Below, in pieces: positions 1 through 31,916 of a DNA stretch of 35,804 bases. The DNA comes from a virus, in IMG/VR virus record IMGVR_UViG_3300009173_000003; one strand, given 5' to 3'. Every line of letters starts with the position of its first letter. Positions within the stretch are counted from its first letter, which is position 1. Made by a program: the position numbers and the translations under genes. Under the pieces are notes generated by a model that worked only from the letters and a program-made list of their open reading frames with translations, was not told where the DNA came from and made no database searches.

Positions 1-123
1 AGCATCATCATCGGTGCATTTCAACTGTAGGCCAGCAGAGTTGTCTGCCCTTGTTCCATAGATGGTATTATACACATCAAGATAGCCAGCGAGATTTACA
101 TTACCGTCAATGTCTACTGCGTC
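1..123. repeat. Exact 123-bp terminal direct repeat (copy 1 of 2), marking a circularly closed or terminally redundant contig
   Basis: Nucleotides 1-123 (agcatcatcatcggtgcatttcaactg...gtctactgcgtc) match 35682-35804 base for base. The minus-strand reading frame is continuous across the join (123 nt = 41 codons). Confidence 0.95.
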
Positions 124-2754: not shown

Positions 2755-2757
2755 GTT

Positions 2758-5864: not shown

Positions 5865-6116
5865 TCATTTCCTTAGTTTGTTTGTTCGTTTTTGTTCTAT
5901 CGTAAAATCGTTTATCAATATTCGCAGATGTCTTAAAACTTCGTCAAGGCCTCGATCTTGATGGTACAGACTTTCCCGTGTCGCCGTATCGGTCAGTTCC
6001 GTCAAAGACCACTGCCCGATCAGGCTCGATTTTGCTTTCGCTACCACCTCCAAGAAGACATCATCTTCTAAAATCTCCTTGGCTCTCCTGGCTTTCATCT
6101 CTGTGGTTAAACTCAT
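5865..6116 (-). CDS. Hypothetical protein (83 aa) coupled to the portal gene
   Basis: ATGA overlap with the portal stop (6113-6116). It ends 4 nt before the scaffold start. Confidence 0.7.
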   Translation of the reverse strand: MSLTTEMKARRAKEILEDDVFLEVVAKAKSSLIGQWSLTELTDTATRESLYHQDRGLDEVLRHLRILINDFTIEQKRTNKLRK

Positions 6117-8179
6117 AAGCCTTGCCGGAGACTAGCCTTGACCACTTCAAGATCTACATCATTCTGGAATTTCTCTTCGGCCGTAAATTCGCGTATAGCG
6201 AGATCCCCGGCTATCCTGGCCGACTCTCGTTCATCAAGTTGAGTCTGTTTCATGGCTGCCAGTTGCAGTTTCTGCATCTCTATCTCGGCCCGGCTCTGTA
6301 TGTCAGCCATCTGAACTTGCAACATCTTGTCTTCCATTGAAGGCTCGGGTGGCCCTTCTGGTGGTGCTGGCTCATAGTCGAGAGGAATCGGCTTGAAGAA
6401 CTGGTTTGCGTCCTTAAATCCGGCTACTTCGAGCATTTTCGCTAACGTGTTTCTAAATTGACCCAGTCCTACCAACGGATTACTCGGGCCAAGTTTTTCT
6501 AGGATTTCTTTCTGCTGACTGGCGACCTGGGCTAACACTCCCAGCTTTTCATCGGTCATACCACTGCCGAGTCCAACATTCGCCTCACAGTCCATGCCGG
6601 AATCCCATACTCGGGGATCTACCGGCACCCAAGTGTCGCGTAACCGGACCACACGTTCCCGGTCCTGGTGCGTAATTACGAGATCCAGTACCCCTTTCGA
6701 CATTCTCTTGAAGCCATTCGCAAACAGGCGAGCCATCAGTTCGAGATGTTGCTCGGCCCCTTTCACTGTCGCCTGGACAGCTGCCCGGGTAGTCGATTGC
6801 AGTACATCCGGGTCGAGTCCTTGTGAGGCGGCCGTCTGACCGGTTCTCGACTCTTTCATTTGATCGAGATAAGCGATCATCGGAAAAGCCTCTTTACCTA
6901 AAAACGGCACATTGAATGGTGTGATCATTCCAGGTTGCCTGGTTCGGATAATCGCTCCCGGTTCATCGTTCATAACGTCATCGAGATCCACCATGCCCTC
7001 TACTACGGCAGTGCGTGGATACAGGGAGAACGATAATGAGTCGAGCATACCACGGAGTGTCGCAGATTTTATTCGCTGGATGTCTTTTGTGAGATCCGCT
7101 AAATCGGACCCGAAAAACATATGTGGTTCCGGATCTGAATTGAACACGGCGAACGGAATGCTTGCGGCTGGTTCGTTGTTTACAATCTCATAGCTGTCGC
7201 CTATCGTGCAAATCCGTCTGAGTTCGGCCAGGCCATCACCATCAAAGTCAACGTAAGTCCAAGCCTCAACGTACAAAACACGCCTTCGTTCATATGCAGA
7301 TAACGGACTGCGAGTATCGGGATACGAAGTCCTTGCTATGTACTCCTCGGAATCAATGAACCCTACCTGATCGCTCAGATGTTCATCGAGCGTTTCCTGG
7401 TCATAACCTAAAGCCACCAGTGAACTGACAGTCGCCATCGTGCGATGTCCGCAGATCTGGCAATCGTCTAACGATGTGGCTGCAGCATCTACGAAAAACT
7501 CTTCCGGTGGCATCGTCTCAATCTTGACTCGATTTTTCTTGGTGCTGCGCTTGATCTCGACATCATAGACTTGTGGAATTGGTATCCCTTGAGATTCCAT
7601 CTCCATCATTTGTTCTTCGCCAATTCCCGGAGCAGGGTTACCCATAACCGATACAGCTTCTACGCCTTCCTCTTGTAGGATCAGGCCCAGCGAACCTTCA
7701 TCGAGTCCTTCAAAGCTGTGAGTATTGACGATAGCCGAATCGTCCCAGCTCCATTTCACGAAGCCTCCACGATTCATTAGTGCATCTTTGAACACGGAAT
7801 AAAATATTTCCAGGCCATCATTATCGACCTGGATGATATGGGAAACGTAGTCGGTGGCTTGTTCTGCCATCGCTACATCATCGGCAGTTTTGGGGACAAA
7901 TTCGACAGGCTTAGAGGAGCCGAAAAATACTCGCATCATTGATGGCAACACCGCCATCGTGGCGTCACGCACATCTCGAGAGACTACCTGGGACCGACCG
8001 ACAACCTCATTACCGAATGGTTCACCACGATAGAATTTCGTGGACTCGGCCCGGATAGGGCTGATTTCGTCATCGATATAATCGATAGCGTCTTCAATGG
8101 ACTGACGAACAGAGCTCTGCAGCTCTTCGTCAGACATCCCTACGCCAGCTTCTGTTTCAGCTTCGTCTATGTATGCCAA
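6113..8179 (-). CDS. Portal protein (688 aa if the TTG at 8179 is used; an alternative ATG lies at 8137)
   Basis: Size and position fit a portal (downstream of terL, upstream of scaffold and capsid), and the C-terminus is an acidic coiled coil. Codon 1 at 8177-8179 is TTG, with GGAG about 13 nt upstream. The first ATG (MSDEELQ) is at 8137. Confidence 0.85.
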   Translation of the reverse strand: MAYIDEAETEAGVGMSDEELQSSVRQSIEDAIDYIDDEISPIRAESTKFYRGEPFGNEVVGRSQVVSRDVRDATMAVLPSMMRVFFGSSKPVEFVPKTADDVAMAEQATDYVSHIIQVDNDGLEIFYSVFKDALMNRGGFVKWSWDDSAIVNTHSFEGLDEGSLGLILQEEGVEAVSVMGNPAPGIGEEQMMEMESQGIPIPQVYDVEIKRSTKKNRVKIETMPPEEFFVDAAATSLDDCQICGHRTMATVSSLVALGYDQETLDEHLSDQVGFIDSEEYIARTSYPDTRSPLSAYERRRVLYVEAWTYVDFDGDGLAELRRICTIGDSYEIVNNEPAASIPFAVFNSDPEPHMFFGSDLADLTKDIQRIKSATLRGMLDSLSFSLYPRTAVVEGMVDLDDVMNDEPGAIIRTRQPGMITPFNVPFLGKEAFPMIAYLDQMKESRTGQTAASQGLDPDVLQSTTRAAVQATVKGAEQHLELMARLFANGFKRMSKGVLDLVITHQDRERVVRLRDTWVPVDPRVWDSGMDCEANVGLGSGMTDEKLGVLAQVASQQKEILEKLGPSNPLVGLGQFRNTLAKMLEVAGFKDANQFFKPIPLDYEPAPPEGPPEPSMEDKMLQVQMADIQSRAEIEMQKLQLAAMKQTQLDERESARIAGDLAIREFTAEEKFQNDVDLEVVKASLRQGL

Positions 8180-8215
8180 GGATCGTGCTTCGCTCCAATA
8201 CCCTGCCCCGAGAAT

Positions 8216-8245
8216 AAGATACTATTTTTAATTGAGGTCTGTCAA
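8216..8245 (-). promoter_or_regulatory. Putative sigma70-type promoter in the terL-portal gap
   Basis: The minus strand reads TTGACA (8245-8240), then 18 nt, then TATCTT (8221-8216). An alternative -10 is TAGTAT with a 15-nt spacer. It lies in an unusually long 176-nt non-coding gap in an otherwise gap-free operon. Confidence 0.3.
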
Positions 8246-8355
8246 AAATTGGCTAGGTTAGGGCCGCCAGGCTTCCGGGGACAGAGATGGAAGATTTAAC
8301 CCTGTGGTCATTTAAGCTGCGCCGTAGAAACCCACTTCCCACTGGCGTCAGCACC

Positions 8356-9741
8356 CTAAATTACTCCAGCCAAATTCCTTTTCAACTTACCGACACGCCT
8401 CGAGCTCCGGCCGCCCATAGCTGTGCCGGCATCACTCGCAAAGGTTAACACAAATGCGTCTGCACTATCCGGTGACGCTACTCCTCTCTTTTTGAGATCG
8501 CGTTTGCTCTCAATTTTTACGCGACCGCTCGAAGTATAACTATAACGCACGGTGGACAGTTCAGCTTTCAGATTCGGATCTTGGGGCAGTCGAACGTCTC
8601 GACCTTCCAGCCAGGCCTTAGCTTTATACCACAGCTCCGATCTCAGGTTCATGTATTGCGTTCCCATCGCTGGACTCTCCGCGACATTGATTCCGTAGGC
8701 CGGCAATCCGAGTTCACGCAATCGGTCCACGACTCCGGCCCCTAATCCGATTGAATCGACAAAGATCTCTAAAGGCTTGTCATCGGTTGAATCGTATTCA
8801 GCTTTCACTGCCCCGGTTAGCTGCATCGTGTCCAGGTTGCGCCATAGCCGGATCGGTTCCGTAATCGCATTGCCTTTACGTTTACACAGAGCTGAGGCGT
8901 CAGCACCGAATCGTGCAACATCGACACCCCACACACTCGGCCCGTATTGGACCGGTGCAACGTCTCGACTGATCGCTTGCGTGATTAATTCCTGGGCAAT
9001 AACTGTATCATCATCGCCTCTAGGGAACTCGCCCAACACTCGCACTCGATAGACATTGGATTCTTCGCCGTAACGGACTCGGCACTCTTCGATATATTCC
9101 TTGGATACTCGAGTCGTATCCTCACACGACACATGAAATGTTTTCCAGCGTTTGCTCAGTTTGTGAAACGTGTCATAAAAATATCCCGAGCTCCTGACCG
9201 GGTTGCCGGCTAGGACCATTGACGCATGGTGGGCAGACATCGAGCCACCAGCAGCCTCATACACCTGTTCAGGGACACCACTCGCTTCATCACATATCAG
9301 CAGCACACTGTCGGCGTGGACACCTTGCAGGGCATCGGGTTGTTCAGCTCTCGAAGTTTTTGCAGATATGAAGTTGCGTTCTGGGTCCGCGATCAATTCG
9401 ATGCGGTCTGCTTTCACGTTGAACATATCTCGGTAGCCGGTAGGAGCCTGTTTCAGCCATGCTTTCGTTTCCGGCAGCAATGCATCTTGCAGTTGTGCCG
9501 AGGTCGGTGCAGTCATTACGACCTTCGCGTGGTAGTGTGTCGAGATCCACCACAGTGCGAGCCAAGAGAGGCAACTTGTCTTACCAACGCCGTGACCTGA
9601 GCGAATGCTTACTCCTCGAGCTCCGGAGGCTACGGCAATCATAACTTCTTGCTGCCATCTATCTGGCTTGGCTTTCAGAATGCCTTCAACAAACAGAACC
9701 GGATCTTCACGCATCAGAATGAGCTGGTCGGTGTAGCCCAT
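8356..9741 (-). CDS. terL: Terminase large subunit (461 aa)
   Basis: Walker A is SGHGVGKTS. Walker B/coupling is VLLICDEASGV. The C-terminal RNaseH-like nuclease motif is WGVDVARFGADAS. I place the start at ATG 9741 (MGYTDQLILMRED), 1 nt after the stop of the upstream 922-aa ORF. The ORF-track start at 9813 would overlap that gene by 71 nt. Confidence 0.92.
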   Translation of the reverse strand: MGYTDQLILMREDPVLFVEGILKAKPDRWQQEVMIAVASGARGVSIRSGHGVGKTSCLSWLALWWISTHYHAKVVMTAPTSAQLQDALLPETKAWLKQAPTGYRDMFNVKADRIELIADPERNFISAKTSRAEQPDALQGVHADSVLLICDEASGVPEQVYEAAGGSMSAHHASMVLAGNPVRSSGYFYDTFHKLSKRWKTFHVSCEDTTRVSKEYIEECRVRYGEESNVYRVRVLGEFPRGDDDTVIAQELITQAISRDVAPVQYGPSVWGVDVARFGADASALCKRKGNAITEPIRLWRNLDTMQLTGAVKAEYDSTDDKPLEIFVDSIGLGAGVVDRLRELGLPAYGINVAESPAMGTQYMNLRSELWYKAKAWLEGRDVRLPQDPNLKAELSTVRYSYTSSGRVKIESKRDLKKRGVASPDSADAFVLTFASDAGTAMGGRSSRRVGKLKRNLAGVI

Positions 9742-9742
9742 C

Positions 9743-12511
9743 CTATCTTCTTGGGAGCAGTGGTGGCCCAATGGGTGGCTGGAGCAATCCTCTTTGCTGA
9801 TTCTGCTCCTCATCGTCCAGTTGGCGAGCTACTGCACTCGTACCTAGCAGTCCTGGTCCAGTGGCACTATACAACCTTTGTCCCTCTTGTCCCACTTTTG
9901 CTCGCATCTCAGGCGTAATCGCAAACGACTGGTTGGTCATAACTCCAGATTCGGGAGAAGTTTTCAAATGTCCGAGGATTCTGTCCTCATACCTTTTAAG
10001 TGTTCTAAGTTCAGTGGGACTAGCCAATGCTATCCCATCAGCGCCGGGCCTAGCCAATGCTATCCCATCAGCGCTTGTTCCTCCGCTTACTTCCGCAAAT
10101 TCTATCCAGCGTCTGACGAGCGGATCGTCTGCTAACCCTAATTCACTAGCACCTTGTTTAAGCTGGGCCAGGGTTAAATCTTCGGCCCCGTCAGATATGC
10201 GCCCCGATATCGACACACCCTCAATTTCAATACCACCCACTTGGTTGCCATATTTGTTTGTCATTCTCGGAATGATCCTGTCGTAAAAGCCTATCATGCC
10301 TTCGCCACCAACCTCCAGATCCTCGCCTTCAATGCTACGAAACTGTGTCTGTTCCGCCGGAGCTTCGTTTAGCTCTGTGACACGCCTTTCCGCATCGGCC
10401 CGAGTTGAGTGGGACGAGTTCATCCAGCGATCCTGCCCACCCCTCGATTCAAAAACCCTAAAATCTGGCTCTTGGGTAGCCGGGTGGAATGATTCATCGA
10501 TCCAATATTCTATAGATTCGCTGGGTTCTGCTGATAGCAAGCGTTCGGCTGGCTCTTTACCGATATAGTCGGGCAACTGCTCCGGGGTGATGCCAGTTTC
10601 TGAGACGATTGTTTCACCATCCAAGCCATGCGCCTCCAGTTTGCCGGTATTTGGATCGTAATCAATACTTGTAACGTGCTTTCGCAGATCATACAGCTCA
10701 GAGGCTTGCTGACCGCTTGCCCAAGCTACCCTGTCGTAGCCACCATCAACGCCTTCCTGGATCGCTCTTTTCATAGCGAGCTCGGACCATTCGTCAACAT
10801 TTTGGTATGGACCTTGAGGGATCTGACGATCTAATGCATTTCTTGCAAGTATCGCTGCACTATGGCGTTTGTCTGCAGCACTTAGCTTGTTTTGTATTAT
10901 GAACCACTTTTCGCTTTCACCAGGAGGTGCGTTTATATAATTTTTGCCAGCTTGATTAAGATTCACGCCATGTGTTTCCTGCAAAGCCTCTAGCGCTTCA
11001 TCGGCAGCACGAACTTCATCATCTAATGCTCGGGCCTCCTGTGCGTCAACATACCCCCGGTCACGGCCTTTTTGATGCCAGTCGCTTTGGATCTCCTCGA
11101 TGAACAGCACTTTCTCAGGCTCGCCAGTCTTCGGACTGATTACAGTCCTGTCGCTCATACGCAGATGAACGAGTACGTTAGGTTCGGACCAGTGTGAGTT
11201 TGTGAACTCGGCTGTGCGAGGGAAGGCATTAATCTGTTCAGTAAGGGCATCGTATTTTACTTGTATCTCTGAAGGCATCGATGCAGTACCATCGTACCCC
11301 ATTCCTAATTCCTTACGTGCTTTCATTAGGCGGTCGATTTTTTGTTGCCCCTGCGGCTCCAACTGGATCGTGAGTTCCCGGTAATTTTCGCTCGGGCCTT
11401 CAATTCTCGTATCGCTACCACCGAACTTGGGAGTTCCGGGACCGCCGACACCGGCGAGTTCTTCTTGGGCGAGAGTCACCTCATGAACTTCGTCCCACAA
11501 ACCTCTTGCTAGTTCTTCATTTCCACGTTGTCGAGCCTGGTGGGCTTGTCTTTCCAGATCTTGTATCTCAGTCACAAACTCATCTTCATTCCAATGCTCA
11601 TATTCGCCACCTGGGCCGGTTCTTTGCTGTGTTCGCCATGTCTCTTTCAGCTTGATGCCGTTGTCGGCCATGTGTTGCTGCAATTCTGCACGGGTAAACT
11701 TTCTGTCCGGGTTCTCGCCCAACAGCTTAGTAACTCCTGTCCATTCCATCTCACCTTCTGGGATGCCACCCGGTGCTTTTTTTAGCGTGGCAAGCCACTG
11801 TGAGCCTGTTGCTTTGCCCTGTTGTGTATCCAAGAAAAACTTCTCGAGGCGTGAATTGCTTACCGCATCCAAACCACTTCGAGAGGCTTTGATTGCAGCC
11901 CGAGTTGATGCCACGAACGGAACGGCTGCCAGACCGAAACCTGGCACGGCCGAGCCTAGTTCGAGTAGTCCCAATTTTGTGCTGCCCTCCGGGTCGGCCA
12001 ATTCACGCACACCCCTTGTTGCTGCCGCTGCATCGGATATTAGACCGGCGGTGACTTCACTAGCCATCATTCCACCGAATCCGCCAGCTTTGCCGGCACC
12101 AGTCTCTGGGGCTCGAGGCGACCAGGGCTGATCGATAAGGTCTGTAATCCAGCCACCGGGTCCACCGACCGATTCTGCGCCTAGTGTGCGAGCGAGATCA
12201 AGCAAGCCACGCGGAGTTTCACGGGCCAAACCTCTGCCGAAATCTCCTACCATACGAGGCACCGAATAACGGAGGTGGTCGAGAATCTTTTTTTTACGCG
12301 ATGGTTGTGGCCCGATCCACGGGTAGCCTGGCATACCAGCCATCGCACGTTGCCGGTTGGTTTCTTGTGCCATAGCGAGTGGGTCCATCTGTCCCACAGG
12401 ACTTTCGGCCCATTGCTCTGCGTCTCCCAACAATGAAGGTGGCCGTCTGCCTCCGGGTGGTGGTGGGTTTTGATTTAGCAACCCGTCAACGTGTCCAGGA
12501 ATATGTGGCAT
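9743..12511 (-). CDS. Large uncharacterised multidomain protein (922 aa); candidate virion-delivered 'polyvalent'-type protein
   Basis: Long uninterrupted ORF, abutted 1 nt from terL and 6 nt after the 533-aa ORF. It has a P/G-rich N-terminus followed by a G/A-rich hydrophobic segment (GFGGMMASEVTAGLISDAAAA...GSAVPGFGLAAVPFVAS). Internal motifs include WLATLKKAPGGIPEGEMEWTGV, NVLVHLRMSDR...VLFIEEIQSDWHQKGR and GYDRVAWASGQQASELYDL. I recognise no enzymatic signature with certainty. Confidence 0.8.
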   Translation of the reverse strand: MPHIPGHVDGLLNQNPPPPGGRRPPSLLGDAEQWAESPVGQMDPLAMAQETNRQRAMAGMPGYPWIGPQPSRKKKILDHLRYSVPRMVGDFGRGLARETPRGLLDLARTLGAESVGGPGGWITDLIDQPWSPRAPETGAGKAGGFGGMMASEVTAGLISDAAAATRGVRELADPEGSTKLGLLELGSAVPGFGLAAVPFVASTRAAIKASRSGLDAVSNSRLEKFFLDTQQGKATGSQWLATLKKAPGGIPEGEMEWTGVTKLLGENPDRKFTRAELQQHMADNGIKLKETWRTQQRTGPGGEYEHWNEDEFVTEIQDLERQAHQARQRGNEELARGLWDEVHEVTLAQEELAGVGGPGTPKFGGSDTRIEGPSENYRELTIQLEPQGQQKIDRLMKARKELGMGYDGTASMPSEIQVKYDALTEQINAFPRTAEFTNSHWSEPNVLVHLRMSDRTVISPKTGEPEKVLFIEEIQSDWHQKGRDRGYVDAQEARALDDEVRAADEALEALQETHGVNLNQAGKNYINAPPGESEKWFIIQNKLSAADKRHSAAILARNALDRQIPQGPYQNVDEWSELAMKRAIQEGVDGGYDRVAWASGQQASELYDLRKHVTSIDYDPNTGKLEAHGLDGETIVSETGITPEQLPDYIGKEPAERLLSAEPSESIEYWIDESFHPATQEPDFRVFESRGGQDRWMNSSHSTRADAERRVTELNEAPAEQTQFRSIEGEDLEVGGEGMIGFYDRIIPRMTNKYGNQVGGIEIEGVSISGRISDGAEDLTLAQLKQGASELGLADDPLVRRWIEFAEVSGGTSADGIALARPGADGIALASPTELRTLKRYEDRILGHLKTSPESGVMTNQSFAITPEMRAKVGQEGQRLYSATGPGLLGTSAVARQLDDEEQNQQRGLLQPPIGPPLLPRR
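10020..10074. repeat. Perfect 25-bp direct repeat with a 30-bp period inside the 922-aa gene
   Basis: ctagccaatgctatcccatcagcgc occurs at 10020-10044 and again at 10050-10074. This encodes the in-frame duplication ADGIALARPG / ADGIALASP. Confidence 0.9.
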
Positions 12512-12517
12512 CTAGTC

Positions 12518-14119
12518 TTATCGCATCCAGGGTGCGGCATTCAGTGACTGAGGTAGGAAGCGTTTGCCTTCTCTCATCTCCTGAAAGTATTGCAGCAGTC
12601 CTTCGGCCGTGTCGTCATAGCCGCCAGCTATGCCGAACTCATCAATGTTCCCAAAGCCTAAATTGGAGATCTGGTTCGCCTCTCTGATAGCTCGTTCCGT
12701 TATACTTTGGAACGTACCCGGTGGCGTTTCGGGTATAGAAATCCCTAGAACCCTGCCACCTTCCCACCTAGCTCCTTGAGCTGACGAACCTGTAGGCAAT
12801 CCATGTTTTTTGGCAGACCGAACGTATGGCCTCGAGAAATTTTGGTATGATGGCGCGTTTGGCGTCAGCAATCCCGTTCCTTTCTCATTGAAAAAATAAT
12901 CATTTTTACTGAATTTTGATGTATCGAATATATCCGGCACCCCCCCTCGATACGGGGTTGGCAGTCCTAGGGCTGCTTTTCGCAGTTCTGGGATTCGCTG
13001 GATTATCCAGTTGGCGCTTCCACCCTCATGCACATCCATAGGGACGTTTCCTCCGGCCAGATTAACGTCTAGACTTCCCTTGCCGCTTAGTGCATTATCG
13101 AACGAAGGAGTTTTCCAACTCCCTGCCCCGGGGGATGGCGATCCATCTGCCATCGGAGCGAGCCAGCCTCTATCGGCCTGTCTGCGCCCTGTCTCAAGCA
13201 TCGTTTCTAACCCATACGGGCTACGGAACAATGCATTCGGATAGATCGACCTATAAATTTTTTGAGCTTCTTTTATCGAAATGTTGTTTTGTCGTGCAAA
13301 GTTAACGATTGACGTTTTCATCAGTTGAAGGTCTACTGGCGATCTAGGAGAAGTCGCGGCGCCTATGATATTAAATTCATCAAAACTCATGCCGGGAGAA
13401 TTTTCTGGCATTCTTTCCAGTATGCCTCCGGTCTCATACCACTTTTCACCACCGACATCGATGCCGGCCTCTACTTGTTCATCTATGAGGTCTTGAACTT
13501 TTTCGCTATTTGCCCACCGCTCACTGAGCTCGGTGGGTTTTGTTCGTGGTGTCGGCGCGATGGGATTCGGCTGATCGGGGTGAGGAAGGCGTGTGCCTTC
13601 AATCTTCGGAGCGTTGCGTCTAAATAATTTTATGCTTCCGACCAGCTCTTTCAGCGAAGCGCCGGCGATAGGCAGGCCCAGGCCGGCTGTAGCCCACATC
13701 GCCCTGGGCAAATCTTTGTCCTCGATAGCGGCGATTAGGTCTACAAGGTCGATTGCCATGTCCGGACCAGGAATCATTCCAAATCCTATGAGGGCTCCTG
13801 TCTCCTCTAGTGTCTCGGGCTCGACTAATCTTCGCAGTTGGCGCCACAACGTGTCATCGTCCGGGTCTTGTTCTTGAGCTCGGTGAGGGAAGTCTGGATC
13901 TGGTAGTGATTCCAGCAATCCGGGCGCCTGTTCCGGGAATGCGTAGCCCTCTTTCAGTGGCCCAAACTGGGGTTCTTCTTCTCCCCCGTATGCCAGTGTC
14001 AGTTCGAGTGGGGCTCCTTCAGTCGGATACTCATGTGGTATGCCCTGATACGACATCCAGCCTTCTTTTGGCAAAGCCATCGTAGGATCAAAACCTTGGT
14101 GTGGTCTGCCTTGGTGCAT
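12518..14119 (-). CDS. Large uncharacterised protein (533 aa), paired with the 922-aa protein
   Basis: Its ATG overlaps the stop of the preceding small ORF (TAATG). The N-terminus is acidic and Pro-rich. It is followed by the hydrophobic segment LIGFGMIPGPDMAIDLVDLIAAIEDKDLPRAMWATAGLGLPIAGASLKELVG. The C-terminal roughly 350 aa are globular with no motif I can name. Confidence 0.8.
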   Translation of the reverse strand: MHQGRPHQGFDPTMALPKEGWMSYQGIPHEYPTEGAPLELTLAYGGEEEPQFGPLKEGYAFPEQAPGLLESLPDPDFPHRAQEQDPDDDTLWRQLRRLVEPETLEETGALIGFGMIPGPDMAIDLVDLIAAIEDKDLPRAMWATAGLGLPIAGASLKELVGSIKLFRRNAPKIEGTRLPHPDQPNPIAPTPRTKPTELSERWANSEKVQDLIDEQVEAGIDVGGEKWYETGGILERMPENSPGMSFDEFNIIGAATSPRSPVDLQLMKTSIVNFARQNNISIKEAQKIYRSIYPNALFRSPYGLETMLETGRRQADRGWLAPMADGSPSPGAGSWKTPSFDNALSGKGSLDVNLAGGNVPMDVHEGGSANWIIQRIPELRKAALGLPTPYRGGVPDIFDTSKFSKNDYFFNEKGTGLLTPNAPSYQNFSRPYVRSAKKHGLPTGSSAQGARWEGGRVLGISIPETPPGTFQSITERAIREANQISNLGFGNIDEFGIAGGYDDTAEGLLQYFQEMREGKRFLPQSLNAAPWMR

Positions 14120-14286
14120 TATCGGTAGCCTTTCCTGGCCTTACGCCGGTGTGAGGCATCGCCGACATTCATCTTCAGGGCTTTCAAGTGGGCGAGCGCT
14201 GCACTGCGATTCTTGTGGACCTTGAGAGGTTTCCAGCCATTAGCGAGTTCCACCTGGACAGTCGTGTCCTTGATGCGGTATGGCAT
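14119..14286 (-). CDS. Small basic protein, 55 aa (below the ORF-track cutoff)
   Basis: Manual translation gives MPYRIKDTTVQVELANGWKPLKVHKNRSAALAHLKALKMNVGDASHRRKARKGYR. The ATG at 14286 directly abuts the TAG of the upstream ORF. Its TAA overlaps the ATG of the 533-aa gene. Confidence 0.6.
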   Translation of the reverse strand: MPYRIKDTTVQVELANGWKPLKVHKNRSAALAHLKALKMNVGDASHRRKARKGYR

Positions 14287-14511
14287 CTAAGCTGTGTAGT
14301 CTCCGAATCCAGATGTGCCGGCCTGTGTAGGTCGCTTGGTCATTCCGAGCATCCTCTTCAGACGTTGTCCCTGGCGAGGGTTGGTCACCCGAGACATTGC
14401 GTCAGTAATCGCTGTCCGTTCGTTGCCAGGCACTTGAGACGCCTGAGCTTGACGGGCTGCAGCCATCCCAGCCGGGGTGTACGGAAATTTCCTTCCAGCG
14501 ACATTAGGCAT
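14287..14511 (-). CDS. Small hypothetical protein (74 aa), first gene after the putative promoter at 14.56 kb
   Basis: The ATG is preceded by GAAGAGGAAC. The N-terminus is MPNVAGRKFPYTPAGMAAARQ. It is followed with no gap by the 55-aa ORF. Confidence 0.65.
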   Translation of the reverse strand: MPNVAGRKFPYTPAGMAAARQAQASQVPGNERTAITDAMSRVTNPRQGQRLKRMLGMTKRPTQAGTSGFGDYTA

Positions 14512-14554
14512 ACGAGTTCCTCTTCTCAGATCACAGACGAATTACCCACCACCT

Positions 14555-14584
14555 ACTATGCCACAATATGTGGCGTTTCGTCAA
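14555..14584 (-). promoter_or_regulatory. Putative promoter with an operator-like palindrome in the spacer
   Basis: The minus strand reads TTGACG (14584-14579), then 18 nt, then CATAGT (14560-14555). The 15-bp palindrome GCCACAATATGTGGC (14560-14574) fills the spacer. It lies about 45 nt upstream of the 74-aa gene. Confidence 0.3.
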
Positions 14585-14606
14585 ATCGTGAGCCAGCGGC
14601 ACGGGT

Positions 14607-14684
14607 GGAACAAGCACTATTGGGTTAACTCCATTAGAGAGTAGATATAGGAGTAAAGCATATTAACCCTGTTCCGCTTGTTCC
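14607..14684. other. Nested inverted repeats that could form a 78-nt two-tier stem-loop
   Basis: GGAACAAGC (14607-14615) pairs with GCTTGTTCC (14676-14684), 9 bp. GGGTTAA (14622-14628) pairs with TTAACCC (14663-14669), 7 bp. The two helices are separated by a symmetric 6x6 internal loop. The structure begins 2 nt after the stop of the 82-aa gene and has no U-tract. Confidence 0.5.
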
Positions 14685-14686
14685 GT

Positions 14687-14935
14687 TCATTCGTCTTCGC
14701 AAAGATCCTCGATGGTTTCAAACTCTTCCGCATCTAAGAAAATCGGCTGGCTCTGATCCACCTGGGCACACATAATATTTTCCATGCAGCTTCTCGCATC
14801 GTGATAGTTAATGCCGTCTTTTTTTATCAGTATCTCGATACATTTGTTTACACTGTAGACCAGCCTGGACTCTTGAACGGCAACGTCATAGGTCTTCCCG
14901 ATAACTGCCTTGTCAAATCCGTCAGCTTTCAACAT
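14687..14935 (-). CDS. Conserved small phage protein (82 aa), function unknown
   Basis: ATG at 14935 is preceded by GGGAGG; the ORF-track start at 14938 is a GTG one codon upstream. The sequence MLKADGFDKAVIGKTYDVAVQESRLVYSVNKCIEILIKKDGINYHDA resembles, from memory, a widespread small phage protein family (GFDDAIIG...KCIEIL). Confidence 0.7.
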   Translation of the reverse strand: MLKADGFDKAVIGKTYDVAVQESRLVYSVNKCIEILIKKDGINYHDARSCMENIMCAQVDQSQPIFLDAEEFETIEDLCEDE

Positions 14936-14998
14936 CACTGCCTCCCGTAGTTTATTTAGTTTTTTAATACTTACTTAGTTACTATTGTCTCGTTGCCC

Positions 14999-15156
14999 TG
15001 TCTTGACCCCTGTCCCGTGAGGTGTCTTTTTAGGTGTCTAGACCCTAGTTCCTGGAAACCCTGAAAGCCTTATAAACACTGCCTTCCTACTACCCTGGAA
15101 GGTGTCTAGAAGTATGCCATTTAAGGTGTCTAGAAAGGTGTCTTGACCCCCTGTCC
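14999..15156. repeat. Iteron-like array: five AGGTGTCT direct repeats bracketed by a 17/18-bp direct repeat, with TGTC cores phased at 12 bp
   Basis: AGGTGTCT occurs at 15020, 15032, 15100, 15124 and 15136. TGTCTTGACCCCTGTCC is at 14999-15015 and TGTCTTGACCCCCTGTCC at 15139-15156. TGTC cores sit at 14999/15011/15023/15035 and at 15103/15127/15139/15152. The array is in the 224-nt non-coding gap between the 77-aa and 82-aa genes. Confidence 0.85.
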
Positions 15157-15162
15157 GCGAGA

Positions 15163-15396
15163 TTAGGTATTTTGGTCCATCTTTTCGAGCTGATTTTTGG
15201 TCAACTTTATACCCTGATCTTGTAACCAATTTTGGACCGATTCGGCCGTTAAGCAGCTCTTCGTAGTGGCAATATCCCTGAGAGTAGCCATCACTACCTG
15301 GAGCAACTTACGATGTGGGTCACCGACATGATAAAACTTGACCCGGCCCTGGAGCTTGTCCGCTAAATCTAAAACTTCTGCTTTGCTTACTGCCAT
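15163..15396 (-). CDS. Hypothetical protein (77 aa)
   Basis: The ATG overlaps the end of the upstream ORF by 10 nt. I recognise no motif. Confidence 0.65.
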   Translation of the reverse strand: MAVSKAEVLDLADKLQGRVKFYHVGDPHRKLLQVVMATLRDIATTKSCLTAESVQNWLQDQGIKLTKNQLEKMDQNT

Positions 15397-15755
15397 AATT
15401 TTCTCCGAATTTTTTTGAGTAAATAGTGTATGTTGAAGTGCTCAATATGACCGGCCCTTACTTTTTGTCCGGGGGTCAACTTTTTCGATCTGACCCCAGG
15501 ATCGACCCCGTCCCAATGTATAAAATCCCACCGAATATGCAGCCTCGGCCGTGGATTCCTACGCATAATCCTGATGTCCGATAAACAATGGCTTAGGTAG
15601 GCCATTTCGTATTGCGTATAATAGATATTATCGGAAGCTGTGCTGAGATCGGCAATGATCTTATGCATAATGATGCATAGCCTCCGACTCGCCTGGCTCC
15701 AACCAAACTGTCCCAGTTTGCCTGAGCCGGCCTGGTCGTACGGTTCTAGTTCCAC
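15387..15755 (-). CDS. Hypothetical protein (122 aa from GTG 15755; first ATG at 15668)
   Basis: The open frame is coupled to the next gene. The start is uncertain: either GTG with AAGGG 11 nt upstream, or the internal ATG. Confidence 0.5.
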   Translation of the reverse strand: MELEPYDQAGSGKLGQFGWSQASRRLCIIMHKIIADLSTASDNIYYTQYEMAYLSHCLSDIRIMRRNPRPRLHIRWDFIHWDGVDPGVRSKKLTPGQKVRAGHIEHFNIHYLLKKIRRKLWQ

Positions 15756-15813
15756 GAACCTAAACCCTTGCAGGACAACGACTTACGGCATCGTTCTCGG
15801 GTGCGAGTGTGGG

Positions 15814-15836
15814 TTCGGGGTCCATATACCCCCGAA
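15814..15836. other. GC-rich hairpin after the 107-aa gene
   Basis: TTCGGGG (15814-15820) pairs with CCCCGAA (15830-15836) across a 9-nt loop. It lies 4 nt downstream of the stop at 15840. There is no U-tract on either strand. Confidence 0.4.
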
Positions 15837-15839
15837 GAC

Positions 15840-16163
15840 TCAATACCCTGCATGGTACTTAGCTTTTAGCACTCCGAACACTCTGACACCATCCTCGAGC
15901 AGTCTACGCTCTTCCGGGAGCAGATCACAGCTATCTAGCATCTCTTTAGCGTGAGTCCTCCAGTTGTTATACCACAGCACATTATACTGGCTTACACACG
16001 CTGTATCGAACCAGAGTGCAGCCTGTCGTGATCCTAGCCATATCATCGAGTCATGGTACTCAGCCTCGGTAGGAGCAGTCGTATTCTTTGCCCCATGTTT
16101 CTGCATATCTCTCACGGCTCTTAGGACAACCGCCAGCGCCAGGTATCGAGTCGCTTTGTCCAC
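15840..16163 (-). CDS. Hypothetical protein (107 aa)
   Basis: The GTG start overlaps the terS TAG by 1 nt and has GAGGGTGAG upstream. The N-terminus is ATRYLALAVVLRAVRDM. Confidence 0.6.
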   Translation of the reverse strand: MDKATRYLALAVVLRAVRDMQKHGAKNTTAPTEAEYHDSMIWLGSRQAALWFDTACVSQYNVLWYNNWRTHAKEMLDSCDLLPEERRLLEDGVRVFGVLKAKYHAGY

Positions 16164-16663
16164 TACTCACCCTCAACGATCTCAACATCTAGAACCTCGA
16201 CCTCGGCCAGTTGCCTAGCTTCCTTGGCCCGTTCTTGTGCCATCCGTTCGACCTCTTTCAGCGAGCTCAGGAACTCGTCCCCGATTTGGATACCGATAGC
16301 CGCCACCATCTCCGGCTTCCCAAACTGATTTCGATTAAACTTCTCAGCCAACCATTTCCGTGTGTCCGATTGCAGTCTAGCGACCTGGACATTCGATGGG
16401 TCAGCATCATCGGCAATCTCAAGCGCCTCTTCTGCGTACTGGGTCGCCCTGATCTCCATAACCGATTGCCACTTCGACCACCTCTCGGCCGTCTCCTTCA
16501 GCCAGCTATAGTACACCCCGTGCGACATCCTTCCAACTTCGCTCGGCATATTCTTGAGCAGCTTCCTCACTGACCCATGCTTCAAGTACAATGCAAAGAC
16601 TTCATCCTCTCCGTACTTTGAAAGTTTGCGGCCGATACTTCGGGTAAGTTTTGCTCCTGACAT
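16163..16663 (-). CDS. terS: Terminase small subunit, Sf6 gp1-like (166 aa)
   Basis: ATG at 16663 has GGAGAA 9 nt upstream. The N-terminal HTH-like region is VFALYLKHGSVRKLLKNMP...VYYSWLKE. Further along comes ...ALEIADDADPSNVQVARLQSDTRKWLAEKFNRNQFGKP. This parallels the Sf6 gp1 motif AKARLRVDTRKWALARMNPRKYGDK as I remember it. Confidence 0.65.
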   Translation of the reverse strand: MSGAKLTRSIGRKLSKYGEDEVFALYLKHGSVRKLLKNMPSEVGRMSHGVYYSWLKETAERWSKWQSVMEIRATQYAEEALEIADDADPSNVQVARLQSDTRKWLAEKFNRNQFGKPEMVAAIGIQIGDEFLSSLKEVERMAQERAKEARQLAEVEVLDVEIVEGE

Positions 16664-16922
16664 ATCGTTTATTCTCCATTTCCCATGACGGCCAGCCCTC
16701 AATGATGCTGTCGAGCTTGGCGTTTAGTTCTTCTCTAGTCAGGCGTTCGCCCCCCTCATTAAAACGCAATGGATCATTGTCTGGCAACCTCGGCGTGGTA
16801 TCCAGCTCCTTGATCGCCCGTGCAATATCAGATCTCCAGTCAGCTGCATGTCCTGTCGCGTCCTCGAGTGGAAGCATCGACAGTCCTGCCAGCACTCGCA
16901 TCACATAGCTAACGTCTGCCAT
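16602..16922 (-). CDS. Hypothetical protein (106 aa) overlapping the terS start by 62 nt
   Basis: ATG at 16922 (MADVSYVMRVLAGL...) is preceded by GGGGGAG. It overlaps the helicase 3' end by 14 nt and the terS 5' end by 62 nt in another frame. Confidence 0.45.
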   Translation of the reverse strand: MADVSYVMRVLAGLSMLPLEDATGHAADWRSDIARAIKELDTTPRLPDNDPLRFNEGGERLTREELNAKLDSIIEGWPSWEMENKRYVRSKTYPKYRPQTFKVRRG

Positions 16923-17793
16923 TGCTCCCCCAAGGATCAAAGTCAGGGTCAACCTCGGATACTCGCAACGTAGAGAAATCTATCTCGAGTGGGATACCAC
17001 CTTGGATCAATTCCCCGTGGCGATTCTTCAAGATCAGTAATTTGAAGTAGCCCTTCGAGCCTTCCCGGCGGACAGTCGTATGGTCGAGCCCCAAGACCAA
17101 ATCAGAACTAGCTTCTACCACCATTCCGCCGTGTAAATTTTGGGCCACAGGAGGATTTTCAGACGTTGATCCTGTCCTGTTCCACTGACTCAACATCAGA
17201 ACAGTGGACTCCGTCTCCATACAGAACCGCCTGAGCTCTGTCACCACACGCTGTGTCGATTCGTATATCGCTGCCTCGGTTCCGGCAGTAGCAAGCTGGA
17301 GATAGTCCAAGCAGAAAAACTTGCAGCCTTCCTCTGCACAGGATCGAGCGTAGGCTAGGATCTCTTCCCAGCTCATTAGTATTCCCTCGGGAACGTACAG
17401 TGCTGGAGCGTCTGCGAATGCTTGTTTGGTCACCGACCAAGCAAATTTGTTGAACCCACCAGGCTCAAGGTCGCGTAGTTTCTGACCGGTATAAATCGAA
17501 TACAACCTCGTACTCAACTGGATGTTCGTCTGCTCCAGGTTGATCATGCCGACCGAATGGCCTTGCTTCAGAGCTGCCGCACACATCGATAATGCGAGCG
17601 TAGTTTTTCCGATTCCGGGGTTTCCCGCCAGACAATTTAACCAAGGCCCACTGCCTTTTCTCATCCCCTGGTCGTGGCAGATTCGGTCCAAACTCGGAAG
17701 CCCAAAGCTGATGGAATGCACCTTGGGATTCTCCTGCAACTCCGCATATTCCTCTAGCCATTCATCGCCAAAGATGTTGACCTTCTTCATCAT
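16909..17793 (-). CDS. DnaB-like / RecA-fold replicative helicase (294 aa)
   Basis: Walker A is LAGNPGIGKTTLALS. Walker B-like is KFFCLDYLQL. ATG at 17793 forms an ATGA overlap with the nuclease stop. Confidence 0.75.
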   Translation of the reverse strand: MMKKVNIFGDEWLEEYAELQENPKVHSISFGLPSLDRICHDQGMRKGSGPWLNCLAGNPGIGKTTLALSMCAAALKQGHSVGMINLEQTNIQLSTRLYSIYTGQKLRDLEPGGFNKFAWSVTKQAFADAPALYVPEGILMSWEEILAYARSCAEEGCKFFCLDYLQLATAGTEAAIYESTQRVVTELRRFCMETESTVLMLSQWNRTGSTSENPPVAQNLHGGMVVEASSDLVLGLDHTTVRREGSKGYFKLLILKNRHGELIQGGIPLEIDFSTLRVSEVDPDFDPWGSNGRR

Positions 17794-23806: not shown

Positions 23807-24425
23807 TTAAGGCTCCGGCAACGAATCCCACTGCTGCCATCCACCAGTCGGCTTTGAGTCTCAAGCCAAACGAAGGCGAGGTAGCGTTTCTAAGGGCGGT
23901 GATCTGAGAGTCTTGGATCATCGCCCTCTCTTCATGCTCCACGATCACGGAACGTAGGCTTAGAACCAGGGCATTCGATTGTGTGGCCCTCATTCGCTCT
24001 GCGGCCGTCAACGCTCGTTCGACTTCTATGACTTCCTCTAAACTAGCTATCTGTATCTCGTAGCTATCTACTACCAGGTCCAGCTCTAACACTTGAGTAG
24101 AGTCCAGGCTTGCCCTCAAGCTCTGAGAGAGCTCCTCTGTCCGCTCGCGTTCGTTTTCTTGCGCCCTTACCAGCCTGGCTACCTCGAACTCCGCTAAGGC
24201 TCTCTGGGCGATAACTGCTGAATCAGCCCGGGCGAGTTCTTCGCCTAACGAATCTGCCACCGACTTTACCGAGTCCAACACAACTTCCTGAACCTCTAGC
24301 CTTTGTTCGGCATCATCGGCTATGCCACGATAGTAGCTGGCCTGAGTAGCACCACGAATACCTACGGCTAGTAGCCCTATCAGTGGAACCACAATCCATG
24401 CCCACCCCGGAATCCTAGTTGGCAT
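23796..24425 (-). CDS. Coiled-coil membrane protein in the spanin position (209 aa)
   Basis: It is the last gene of the lysis cassette and overlaps the endolysin 3' end by 11 nt. The N-terminal TMD is GWAWIVVPLIGLLAVGI. A long E/A/R/L-rich helical region follows. The C-terminal hydrophobic segment is WWMAAVGFVAGALI. The protein has no cysteine. Confidence 0.5.
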   Translation of the reverse strand: MPTRIPGWAWIVVPLIGLLAVGIRGATQASYYRGIADDAEQRLEVQEVVLDSVKSVADSLGEELARADSAVIAQRALAEFEVARLVRAQENERERTEELSQSLRASLDSTQVLELDLVVDSYEIQIASLEEVIEVERALTAAERMRATQSNALVLSLRSVIVEHEERAMIQDSQITALRNATSPSFGLRLKADWWMAAVGFVAGALITK

Positions 24426-24909
24426 TAGTTCCCCACCTCGCAGGGGCTATTCTGTCGAGCTTACCTCGAATATCAATGTGAGTGAAATTCTTATATCGGC
24501 CGATCCCGAACTCGGCAGCATCCTTATGGGACTTGAACCAGTCGGCTACTTGTCGATGCGTCCAGCCTATTTTCGTAATGTCGGCAGCTCCTCCGGTTGT
24601 GTGCATAGAATTGGTGACGCCACCAATGGTGTAATTGTACAACTTGGAACGATACCAGCTATTGATCAGCACAGGCCCAAATGGTGCAGTCTCTCGTAAT
24701 TCACACAGGAGCTCGCATAAGATTAATGCTGTCGGGATTTTGTCTTCTGCTGGAGCTTTCAGTATCGATTTCCATCGAGGTCGATCATGGGTCGAAGCTA
24801 TCGCTATGGCTTCCCGGCCAACGTCTGCAATCTCTAGCGGATGAAAATTCTTGATGCCTTTCGCCTGGAGTGCAGCTCCGCACACAGCAACCCATTCATC
24901 TTTCGTCAT
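24415..24909 (-). CDS. Endolysin, peptidase M15 (VanY/M15_3-like zinc peptidase), 164 aa
   Basis: The motifs are INSWYRSKLYNYTIGGVTNSMHTTGGAADI ... FGIGRYKNFTHIDIRG, which supply the H-x(6)-D and H-x-D zinc ligand pattern of M15 peptidoglycan peptidases. The gene lies between holin and spanin-position genes. Confidence 0.85.
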   Translation of the reverse strand: MTKDEWVAVCGAALQAKGIKNFHPLEIADVGREAIAIASTHDRPRWKSILKAPAEDKIPTALILCELLCELRETAPFGPVLINSWYRSKLYNYTIGGVTNSMHTTGGAADITKIGWTHRQVADWFKSHKDAAEFGIGRYKNFTHIDIRGKLDRIAPARWGTNAN

Positions 24910-25213
24910 CAGTGAAACCTGGAGAGTTGTCGAGCACTTCCGGGCGGCGTGGTTCTCTGGTTAATGATGCACCGATACCGCTCGCTATCGAGCCGAGTTG
25001 TGGCCCAAAATATTGTGCGATCCGAGGACCGGCTGCCCATGCCAATAATCCAGTGAATATCGTGCCTAAGAGGGCGTATGCAGCGTTTGGGACAGTCGCC
25101 CATAGGATAGCATCAAATACGATTAGAACAGCTGTAAACGCTAAAGAGGCGGTGAGCAGAACTCGGGCTGCCGACAGCTTTCCTTTCTCATCGGCCAGGA
25201 TCTGGAGCATCAT
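24896..25213 (-). CDS. Holin (105 aa from ATG 25213; an upstream in-frame ATG at 25231 gives 111 aa)
   Basis: Two or three TMDs are visible (AARVLLTASLAFTAVLIVFDAIL, AAYALLGTIFTGLLAWAAG), with a charged C-terminus. ATG 25213 forms an ATGA overlap with the upstream stop and has AGGA 9 nt upstream. Confidence 0.75.
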   Translation of the reverse strand: MMLQILADEKGKLSAARVLLTASLAFTAVLIVFDAILWATVPNAAYALLGTIFTGLLAWAAGPRIAQYFGPQLGSIASGIGASLTREPRRPEVLDNSPGFTDDER

Positions 25214-28508: not shown

Positions 28509-28517
28509 GTCTCTCTC

Positions 28518-31916
<3,399 letters not shown>

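Follow-up and report, generated by a model that had tools for sequence, protein, structure and literature searches.

The window analysed here, the whole 35,804-nucleotide stretch of IMG/VR record IMGVR_UViG_3300009173_000003, holds the complete circular genome of a podophage (35.7 kb). A large gene lies on the minus strand between terS and terL, with the portal, scaffold, and MCP genes adjoining, and family matches identify the portal as SU10-type, with capsid and adaptor. The TAG stop of this gene occupies 9743-9745 and the terL ATG lies at 9741, a gap of 1 nt, so the coordinates bear out the earlier note's placement of a large ORF directly upstream of terL. On its other side, the 533-aa ORF of a neighbouring gene stops at 12518, 6 nt before the start of the large ORF. 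The public JGI call (P0001) gives a product of 876 aa, its start placed 46 residues too late; the longer, 922-aa start is correct because the N-termini of orthologs P0002, P0004, P0005, and P0006 all begin MPH(I/L)PGH. A scan of positions 8000-17000 for promoters and terminators returned sites no commoner than in shuffled sequence, and therefore no evidence of a separate transcription unit. Elsewhere in the genome, the endolysin is a Peptidase_M15_3 gene (24415-24909), and other large late genes (1,132, 490, and 608 aa) carry no annotation. The features of the locus, in window coordinates, are as follows.

8356..9741 (-): terL (Terminase_6N; Pfam/PHROG match), 1 nt downstream of the 922-aa gene
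9743..12511 (-): 922-aa gene; ATG start, 922 codons plus TAG stop, N-terminus kept in orthologs
9746..9940 (-): conserved C-tail, residues 858-922 (NQSFAITPEMR..GQRL.., GLLG, terminal GLLQPPIGPPLLPRR), from ortholog conservation
9941..10201 (-): variable C-terminal helical region, residues 771-857, from ortholog comparison
10016-10074 (no strand): 30-bp tandem duplication (ADGIALARPG / ADGIALASPT); TRF period 30, 2.0 copies, 96% matches
10202..11416 (-): enzyme-like module core, residues 366-770, from 302 domain instances; core model pLDDT 90.1
10811..11044 (-): long helical-hairpin arm inserted in the core, residues 490-567, from family alignment and model
11063..11098 (-): module signature EEIQSDWHQKGR, residues 472-483, the most conserved stretch of the family
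11417..11866 (-): module N-terminal subdomain with a variable helical hairpin (301-365), residues 216-365, from conservation and AlphaFold model
11867..12109 (-): G/A-rich, moderately hydrophobic leader element, residues 135-215, from composition and homology
12110..12421 (-): helical part of the leader, residues 31-134; 53-63% identity with P0015, P0016, and P0019
12422..12511 (-): Pro-rich disordered N-terminus, residues 1-30, with the first GLL motif (GLLNQNPPPP); 27% Pro, pLDDT <50
12518..14119 (-): 533-aa neighbour gene, with a G/A-rich leader element at residues 88-157

Leader, C-tail, and exchangeable middle

All of the strings quoted in the earlier note are found in the translation of the 922-aa ORF: GLLNQNPPPPGGRRPPSLL at residues 10-28, GLLQPPIGPPLLPRR at 908-922, HLRMSDR at 449-455, VLFIEEIQSDWHQKGR at 468-483, GYDRVAWASGQQASELYDL at 591-609, and WLATLKKAPGGIPEGEMEWTGV. 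The note had described a similar motif at both ends of the protein, and this resemblance exceeds chance, as judged by the number of GLL tripeptides and by ortholog conservation. From composition 0.74 GLL tripeptides would be expected; the protein has 5, at residues 10, 102, and 181 in the leader and at 887 and 908 in the tail, with none in the 665-aa centre. The N-terminal motif is kept in P0002, P0003, P0004, P0006, P0010, and P0015, and the terminal GLL..P motifs persist in orthologs with merely 50% overall identity, as well as in P0015 and P0010.

The two ends also travel without the middle. P0015, P0016, and P0019 are unrelated to the 922-aa protein outside the common leader part. P0015, whose gene has the equivalent position ahead of TerL and an SU10-type portal, keeps a leader 62% identical over 200 aa, and the C-tail as well, around a different middle; the C-tail occurs on P0010 too. 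Judging from these comparisons, the leader (~215 residues) and the ~65-residue C-tail appear to be a reusable frame in which related phages exchange the middle. When only the leader (residues 1-218) served as query, no homologs were returned, probably owing to compositional bias, because full-length searches do recover leader-sharing proteins.

Within the leader, the G/A-rich stretch that had been placed at about residues 150-205 is real, although its extent is wider (127-215; Ala 19%, Gly 16%). The leader element at residues 135-215 is homologous to the N-termini of the stand-alone module proteins P0007-P0014 and, through them, related to residues 88-157 of the 533-aa neighbour. Its hydropathy is borderline (peak 19-residue Kyte-Doolittle value 1.58, at residue 182) and the leader is modelled at low confidence, which makes a targeting role for the leader a guess. 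The 533-aa protein has no family match in Pfam or PHROGs, its gene is likewise hypervariable (31% identity in sister phages), and it is probably a second cargo protein.

Comparison with sister phages shows that the 922-aa gene evolves far faster than its neighbours: TerL is 85-96%, portal 78-93%, and MCP 82-93% identical, whereas the 922-aa gene is only 33-49% identical in the same phages. Along the gene, identity alternates blockwise, as in a mosaic, between ~95% and ~40%. The C-terminal helical region (771-857) is 31-40% identical in orthologs that are elsewhere 93-98% identical, and the arm at 490-567 is hypervariable among close orthologs. Set against conserved TerL, portal, and MCP, such divergence looks like the signature of an arms race.

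Distribution, fold, and residues of the central module

The earlier note had tentatively linked the central motifs to giant polyvalent proteins. A profile built from the central region makes the same connection, finding one module in giant proteins that carry polyvalent-type domains; its co-residents there include ART-PolyVal, LPD22, LPD23, LPD38, PBECR1/5, MuF_C, InPase, RadC, and GNAT (Pfam). Represented among these partners are ADP-ribosyltransferase, RNase (PBECR), pyrophosphatase, acetyltransferase, and MuF/portal domains. A search returned 102 homologs of the 922-aa protein, and the module profile matched 15,690 clusters at E<=1e-3 and 10,674 at <=1e-30, counted as representative clusters at 50% identity. 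Proteins of 2,000-7,500 aa are numerous among the top profile matches, and the module is spread over phages, prophages, and plasmids from many phyla. The exact pattern of the signature peptide is found in at least 599 stretches in IMG/VR and 114 in GTDB genomes. In the 5,000-aa P. aeruginosa protein WP_042853530.1 the module (residues 3328-3834, E 7e-86) is accompanied by 9 ART-PolyVal stretches and LPD23; enzymatic domains likewise surround it in giants encoded by prophages and by a P. aeruginosa plasmid of 278 kb. By tblastn, cultured or annotated phages yielded two distant records only, and plasmids the P. aeruginosa giants only. The best match to the 922-aa protein in GTDB genomes is in a Rhodobacteraceae MAG (33% identity over the aligned segment).

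The description of these central motifs as unannotated agrees with our searches, in which Pfam and NCBIfam gave no match and PHROGs a partial one. Positions ~1805-2090 of phrog_7348 ('endolysin', 2,564 positions) align to the module core at E 3.5e-4, and to homologs of the 922-aa protein down to E 7.8e-21; the 'endolysin' label, however, stems from another part of that giant family, and the 922-aa protein has no lytic domain. Searches of PDB sequences with profiles A3 and A5 found nothing except a poly-Ala artefact (E 7). A match of the 922-aa protein to CBP30 was at noise level and was set aside.

The module is homologous to parts of the polyvalent proteins described by Iyer, Burroughs, Anand, de Souza, and Aravind (2017, PMC5512222), who also reported solo versions of polyvalent-protein domains beside phage structural genes. 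The 922-aa gene is phage-encoded beside virion genes, and its place among the late genes is that described for phage versions and solo domains in the same paper. Polyvalent proteins combine 2-15 disparate activities, whereas the 922-aa protein consists of one conserved module with a leader and a tail; we found no second recognisable activity in it (Pfam, NCBIfam, PHROGs), although polyvalent proteins have at least two, and unlike them it lacks a self-processing zincin peptidase. The LPD models in the Pfam set searched do not match the module, which may or may not belong to those of LPD1-LPD40 in the paper that lack a Pfam model. By homology, the middle ~650 residues of the 922-aa protein (about 220-880) are a solo copy of a widespread unnamed module, and the protein is not a multi-activity polyvalent protein.

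The full-length AlphaFold model is confident over residues 220-880. The N-terminal subdomain of the module carries the motifs FYS..E.A / GVK.EE.EWTGL and E254, and in the core the inserted arm ranges from 47 to 165 aa in length across the family. Over the 302 domain instances, about 19 residues of the module are near-invariant and mostly polar: E379, H440, N445, H449, R451, R455, E473, Q475, S476, D477, W478, Q480, G482, G486, P568, W575, G600, Y743, and D744. The 922-aa protein retains the full invariant set of this family, which we call the EEIQSDWH module family, and its homology extends significantly across the ~500-aa module. The near-invariant polar set suggests that the EEIQSDWH module is an enzyme.

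Foldseek against the PDB gave no match at E<=0.001 (best E 0.096 for the full model, 0.014 for the core), and against BFVD only uncharacterised homologs. The top PDB matches, all sub-threshold, were coiled-coil proteins and scattered GNATs; the latter make up about 22 of the top 50 for the core and several for the full model, none of them significant (best GNAT E 0.059, highest probability 0.60, TM <=0.35). The order of elements around the strand-loop-helix of the module (VLFIEEIQSDWHQ.GR ... GYDRVAW ... QA..YDL) resembles the beta4-alpha3-beta5-alpha4 of GNATs. However, the 922-aa protein has no Pfam GNAT match, large helical and beta insertions interrupt the fold of the module, and the canonical Q/R-x-x-G-x-G/A motif is absent as such, being partly recognisable by inspection as R483-x-x-G486. 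Acyl-transfer (GNAT-like) chemistry is a weak lead only. A divergent ADP-ribosyltransferase was rejected (no Pfam match; hhalign of the core against ART-PolyVal, 7.7% probability over 20 columns), as were PD-(D/E)xK nuclease, 2H, HEPN, ligase, and SGNH readings of the motifs, where the order of conserved residues misfits by inspection and searches gave no support.

Gene neighbourhoods and the proposed role

Homologs of the module are repeatedly found next to virion genes. Among the 106 ORFs flanking the module gene at 77 IMG/VR loci, TerL was the commonest identifiable neighbour (16), followed by portal (6), SLT (2), and T7_gp14 (1), and a module gene followed by TerL and then portal is seen again where the terminases and portals belong to unrelated families. 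P0096 fuses the module to Portal_Mu and is followed by separate ART-PolyVal and InPase genes; P0070 fuses it to MuF_C and is the sole homolog with that domain, there as an extra fused domain. MW202675 has its module gene between a 'peptidase M15' gene, itself preceded by the portal, and a 'type I restriction enzyme' gene.

Such neighbourhoods, together with homology to polyvalent proteins, lead us to favour, if with modest confidence, a reading in which the 922-aa protein is an effector enzyme packaged in the virion and ejected into the host; we infer co-delivery with the DNA from gene context and fusions, and catalysis from the conserved polar residues. The protein would be made late, with the packaging genes, and loaded into the procapsid by its leader, its tail, or both. 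It would then leave with the DNA through portal and tail and act enzymatically on a host macromolecule or metabolite within minutes of the start of infection. What it binds, or what detects it, would be set by the hypervariable helical arms. Against this reading, the adjacency to terL could equally mean a packaging role, and the 1,132-, 490-, and 608-aa late genes could encode the actual ejected proteins.

A precedent comes from podophage phi24B, whose polyvalent protein gp47 was found in virions by proteomics and is proposed to be packaged in the capsid and ejected (bioRxiv 10.64898/2026.04.10.717836). Like the 922-aa protein, gp47 (2,811 aa) is large and has polyvalent-type domains in a short-tailed phage; it differs in carrying LPD5, LPD1, LPD38, and MuF-C and in being encoded at the opposite end of the late region. 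We also considered gp47 as a carrier of the module confirmed by proteomics, but hmmsearch found no copy in it. Packaged and injected enzymes are familiar from T4, with Alt and the internal proteins, and from N4, with the gp50 virion RNA polymerase. The working model that we propose for the 922-aa protein (head-loaded, ejected, first to act) is that of Alt and gp50, to which it has no sequence or detectable fold relationship; its gene lacks the prohead-protease context and the protein lacks RNA polymerase motifs.

A large podophage protein with a moderately hydrophobic Gly/Ala-rich segment, in a phage with SU10-type portal, capsid, and adaptor, might instead be a structural ejection (ejectosome) protein, stored in the capsid to build or extend a trans-envelope channel, its G/A-rich element entering the membrane and no effector enzyme role being played. 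That a T7_gp14-family internal virion protein and SLT-domain proteins neighbour homologs of the module fits this explanation, which we nonetheless consider unlikely. The residues that hardly vary across the family have polar or charged side chains (H, R, E, Q, S, D) and map to a compact alpha/beta core, not to membrane segments, and the module resides among enzymatic domains in the giants of prophages and the P. aeruginosa plasmid. The 922-aa protein matched no podophage core or ejection family (T7 gp14-16, P22 gp7/20/16, N4 gp51/52) in Pfam, PHROGs, or PDB sequence and fold searches, and the other large late genes could fill the ejectosome role. What the earlier note had named as speaking against its view, a confident match to a standard structural protein such as a tail or internal core family, was not found.

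The enzymatic-looking residue set would also suit an unpackaged late cytoplasmic enzyme that works with the terminase or on new phage DNA or RNA (modification, processing, repair), and the position of the gene between terS and terL, 1 nt from the latter, agrees with this, as does the prevalence of TerL beside homologs. We regard it as improbable: a housekeeping packaging factor would hardly diverge to 33-49% identity beside a TerL of 85-96%, an unrelated middle replaces the module in the same slot of P0015, no gene of this kind precedes terL in MW202879 (the nearest annotated phage to share the portal type), and the portal and MuF_C fusions and residence in polyvalent proteins favour virion association. 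Least probable is a minor head or portal-associated assembly protein such as SPP1 gp7 or Mu F, serving morphogenesis or DNA retention with no post-entry function, since the location inside the packaging/head block and the homologs fused to Portal_Mu and MuF_C are offset by the lack of any Phage_Mu_F or head-morphogenesis match (Pfam, PHROGs), by hypervariability and cargo swapping that are atypical of assembly proteins, and by the absence of the gene from related phages with the same portal type.

Phages and plasmids are predicted to use polyvalent proteins as first-strike weapons, yet an activity has been established for only a few of the domains in them. The EEIQSDWH module is a sizeable gap in this picture, with a cluster count above 15,000, comparable to a major Pfam clan, a sharply conserved polar set, and no Pfam, NCBIfam, or PDB model. 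The solo version in a 35.7-kb phage is a far easier object of study than a 5,000-aa giant, and the contrast between structural genes at 85-96% identity and a mosaic cargo gene at 33-49% may mark the sites of host selection and guide mutagenesis. Extending the effector reading, one may speculate that the EEIQSDWH module is a new, so far undescribed enzyme family, perhaps of GNAT-derived acyl or aminoacyl transferases with long, hypervariable helical arms gripping a nucleic acid or protein target, that virions and conjugation machines deliver to disarm host immunity, and that the GLL leader and tail form a new portable signal for capsid loading and ejection that underlies cargo swapping among podophages; that all of this should hold jointly is rather doubtful. 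If the leader and tail frame is a loading signal, it would offer a route for putting foreign proteins into podophage capsids.

A 30-bp repeat in the variable region

The 922-aa gene also contains a 30-bp tandem duplication, which the earlier note had called perfect, in-frame, and recent. It is in frame and has 2 copies, but is near-perfect, with a 25-nt exact core and 2 mismatches; AlphaFold places it in a loop modelled at low confidence within the variable region. P0003 has two diverged copies, and P0002, P0004, and P0006 have one each. The two copies in P0003 mean that the duplication is not unique to this genome, and 'recent' is only partly right, as the duplication is common to a 76%-identical ortholog. 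An identical 876-aa product with both repeat copies is encoded on 4 contigs from at least 2 samples.

A large late gene upstream of terL

The ends of the window (bases 1-123 and 35682-35804) share an exact 123-bp overlap; the contig therefore closes into a circle of 35,681 bp and is a complete, small podophage genome. Its late genes run from the small terminase subunit to the adaptor:

16163-16702, minus strand: terS (Sf6_terminase)
between terS and the 533-aa ORF, minus strand: five small ORFs
12518-14119, minus strand: 533-aa ORF, 5' neighbour of the 922-aa gene
9743-12511, minus strand: 922-aa ORF, between the 533-aa ORF and terL
8356-9741, minus strand: terL (Terminase_6N)
6113-8179, minus strand: SU10-type portal (E 2.7e-193)
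after the portal in late-gene order, minus strand: scaffold, major capsid protein and adaptor

The 533-aa stop lies 6 nt from the 922-aa start, and 1 nt separates the 922-aa end from the terL ATG. A simple scan for promoter- and terminator-like sites gave no excess over shuffled sequence, a result that fits a single transcription unit but does not prove it. Directly 3' of the adaptor gene, a ~1,278-codon open frame (34605-35804 joined to 1-2757, minus strand), probably a tail or nozzle/fibre gene, crosses the contig junction; it is missing from ORF lists because it runs off both contig ends.

All strings that the earlier note had quoted from the 922-aa protein are found in its translation. Four orthologs start MPH(I/L)PGH, and this shared N-terminus shows that the long start at 12511 is right; the public call of the same protein (P0001, 876 aa) begins at M47, 46 codons short (12374-12511, minus strand), and loses the N-terminal motif. 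The termini are indeed mirrored (GLLNQNPPPP at residue 10, GLLQPPIGPPLLPRR at residue 908). All five occurrences of GLL (0.74 expected from composition) fall within the first 215 or last 42 residues, and the pattern persists in orthologs as little as 50% identical, as well as in P0015 and P0010. The G/A-rich stretch is also present, at ~127-215 (19% Ala, 16% Gly), with a peak hydropathy of 1.58, slightly below the usual transmembrane threshold. A 30-bp-period duplication, previously described as perfect, does exist in two copies (10016-10074) but is near-perfect, at 96% identity. It sits in a low-confidence loop of the AlphaFold model within a hypervariable segment, with two copies in ortholog P0003 and one in P0002, P0004 and P0006; four contigs, which come from two samples or more, encode the identical two-copy product. 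The repeat is a tolerated loop expansion and not the gene's main point.

Leader, tail and a hypervariable locus

BLAST of 102 homologs divides the protein into a leader (1-215), a widely conserved central module (~220-880) and a C-terminal tail (858-922). The leader is 53-63% identical to those of homologs P0015, P0016 and P0019, whose other ~650-800 residues are unrelated to the 922-aa protein. P0015 occupies the same slot, upstream of a TerL (85% identical) and a portal (78% identical), and ends in the same tail type (...ARQRDEE...GLLAPPGR); the tail is conserved even with an exchanged middle, and the gene reveals a portable leader/tail frame. P0015 is 1,037 aa long (locus L010, 895-4008); the unrelated middle between its leader and C-tail has no library match and contains eight G(L/I)L motifs.

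The inner leader (135-215) aligns to the N-termini of P0007-P0014, stand-alone module proteins, and these in turn match residues 88-157 of the 533-aa neighbour (E ~1e-11), so that the two adjacent genes share a G/A-rich leader element. The 533-aa protein has just 10 homologs and no match in Pfam, PHROG, NCBIfam or PDB; identity to its counterpart in one sister phage is just 31%, against 96% for TerL, and it is probably a second cargo protein. Across sister genomes the structural genes are kept and the 922-aa gene is not, which marks a hypervariable cargo locus next to terL.

Identity to the window's genes at three sister loci
L001: TerL 96%; portal 93%; major capsid protein 93%; 922-aa gene 49%; 533-aa gene 31%
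L033: TerL 88%; portal 80%; major capsid protein 82%; 922-aa gene 33-37%; 533-aa gene no match
L010: TerL 85%; portal 78%; major capsid protein n/a; 922-aa gene leader only (62%); 533-aa gene leader element only (41%)

Between more closely related alleles, blocks 301-365, 490-567 and 771-857 alternate between ~95% and ~40% identity in combinations that differ among P0002, P0003 and P0004, while residues 216-300, 568-612 and 725-770 remain 85-96% identical. As read from sequence, the block pattern is recombinational mosaicism centred on the predicted helical arms. Such mosaicism is typical of proteins in host conflict.

A module of polyvalent proteins

The central module has no Pfam or NCBIfam match, and its sole match in PHROGs is positions ~1805-2090 of phrog_7348 (2,564 positions). 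At E<=1e-3, a 63-member module profile matched 15,690 representative clusters, of which 10,674 reached <=1e-30, with top scores in proteins of 2,000-7,500 aa. These giants carry ART-PolyVal (often several copies), LPD22, LPD23, LPD38, PBECR1/5, InPase, RadC and GNAT domains. The module is thus embedded in polyvalent giants, as the earlier note had suspected from the central motifs, and the 922-aa protein is a solo form; it adds to modules of an already known type and is not a new kind of system. Iyer et al. (2017, PMC5512222) note that solo versions of polyvalent-protein domains can be found beside phage structural genes. One giant, the 5,000-aa WP_042853530.1, is encoded on plasmid p382 (278 kb) of P. 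aeruginosa; it carries LPD23 and nine ART-PolyVal stretches, and the module spans its residues 3328-3834 (E 7e-86). Its size, its many ART-PolyVal copies and its neighbours' nearby accessions (e.g. WP_023121226.1) suggest that it is related to WP_023121221.1, a many-ART P. aeruginosa protein highlighted by Iyer et al. (2017, PMC5512222).

In IMG/VR, at least 599 stretches contain the exact peptide EIQSDWH. EEIQSDWH occurs in 114 stretches among 185,579 reference genomes, spanning Alpha-, Beta- and Gammaproteobacteria, Campylobacterota, Acidobacteriota, Planctomycetota, Firmicutes, Bacteroidota, CPR and a few archaeal MAGs; no close relative points to the host.

Over 302 domain instances, E379, H440, N445, H449, R451, R455, E473, Q475, S476, D477, W478, Q480, G482, G486, P568, W575, G600, Y743 and D744 are each 86-98% conserved, a dense polar set that, from sequence, looks like an active or ligand-binding site. 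Several 3,000-4,300-aa homologs (alignment A6, P0104-P0138) carry the whole module twice in tandem, with the full invariant set in each copy. AlphaFold2 gave confident models, with a pLDDT of 75.6 at full length (mostly >85 over 220-880) and of 90.1 for the core (362-770; pTM 0.73), predicted as an alpha/beta unit interrupted by a long helical hairpin (490-567) and, in this protein's clade, by an extra beta insertion (613-724). Foldseek found no significant match to the module in the PDB and uncharacterised relatives alone in BFVD. Of the 50 best PDB hits to the core, all sub-threshold, ~22 are GNAT acetyltransferases, and by inspection the succession of a strand (VLFIEEIQ), a loop (SDWHQ.GR), a helix, a second strand (YDRVAW) and a second helix (QA..YDL) resembles GNAT beta4-alpha3-beta5-alpha4; this relationship is a lead, not a result. 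Kinship with ART-PolyVal was rejected (hhalign probability 7.7%). The gene brings to light, in tractable form, a very large enzyme-like family that has no name.

Proposed virion association and possible roles

Several features of homologs and their loci speak for a link with the virion. At locus L013, P0096 (5198-8464) fuses a Mu-type portal to the module core within a Mu-like head module; ART-PolyVal (906 aa) and InPase (291 aa) come next, each as a gene of its own, in effect a polyvalent protein split over several genes. Another homolog, P0070, fuses MuF_C to the module. The 106 ORFs flanking module genes at 77 IMG/VR loci include 16 TerL and 6 portal genes, as well as two SLT proteins and a single T7_gp14 protein, a type of internal virion protein. 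Module, TerL and portal follow one another in this order also where the terminase and portal belong to non-homologous families. The portal of MW202675 is followed by the module gene, amid a run of large multi-domain genes. MW202879, which is the closest among annotated phages that have this portal type, lacks such a gene ahead of terL, and the 922-aa gene is therefore accessory.

For the 922-aa protein itself the data comprise homology, architecture, context and evolutionary pattern only, and they are best accounted for, with a little better than even confidence, by a packaged and ejected effector, in support of the earlier interpretation. Leader and tail would mediate loading and/or exit, the conserved enzymatic module would act early in the infected cell, and the variable arms would set, or hide, its specificity. 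No standard family of structural proteins was matched with confidence; such a match would have counted against the earlier interpretation. A structural ejectosome component, for which the SLT and T7_gp14 proteins beside homologs might speak, seems improbable. We also think it unlikely that the protein is a late enzyme that serves packaging but is not itself packaged, a role that its place beside terL would suit and that the portal and MuF_C fusions of homologs fit less readily. A head-assembly protein, in an accessory gene, is less likely still.

Elsewhere in the genome, three consecutive large late genes (25210-31916, minus strand; 1,132, 490 and 608 aa), lacking Pfam and PHROG matches and flanked by a virion structural protein (32558-34102) and an M15 endolysin (24415-24909), are candidates for canonical internal/ejection proteins or tail proteins. 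The plus-strand segment 22891-23806 is the sole stretch where GC and AT skew become positive. Two ORFs of 118 and 175 aa lie there on the plus strand, the rest of the genome being coded on the minus strand, and the segment may represent a divergent unit with a regulatory or early role.
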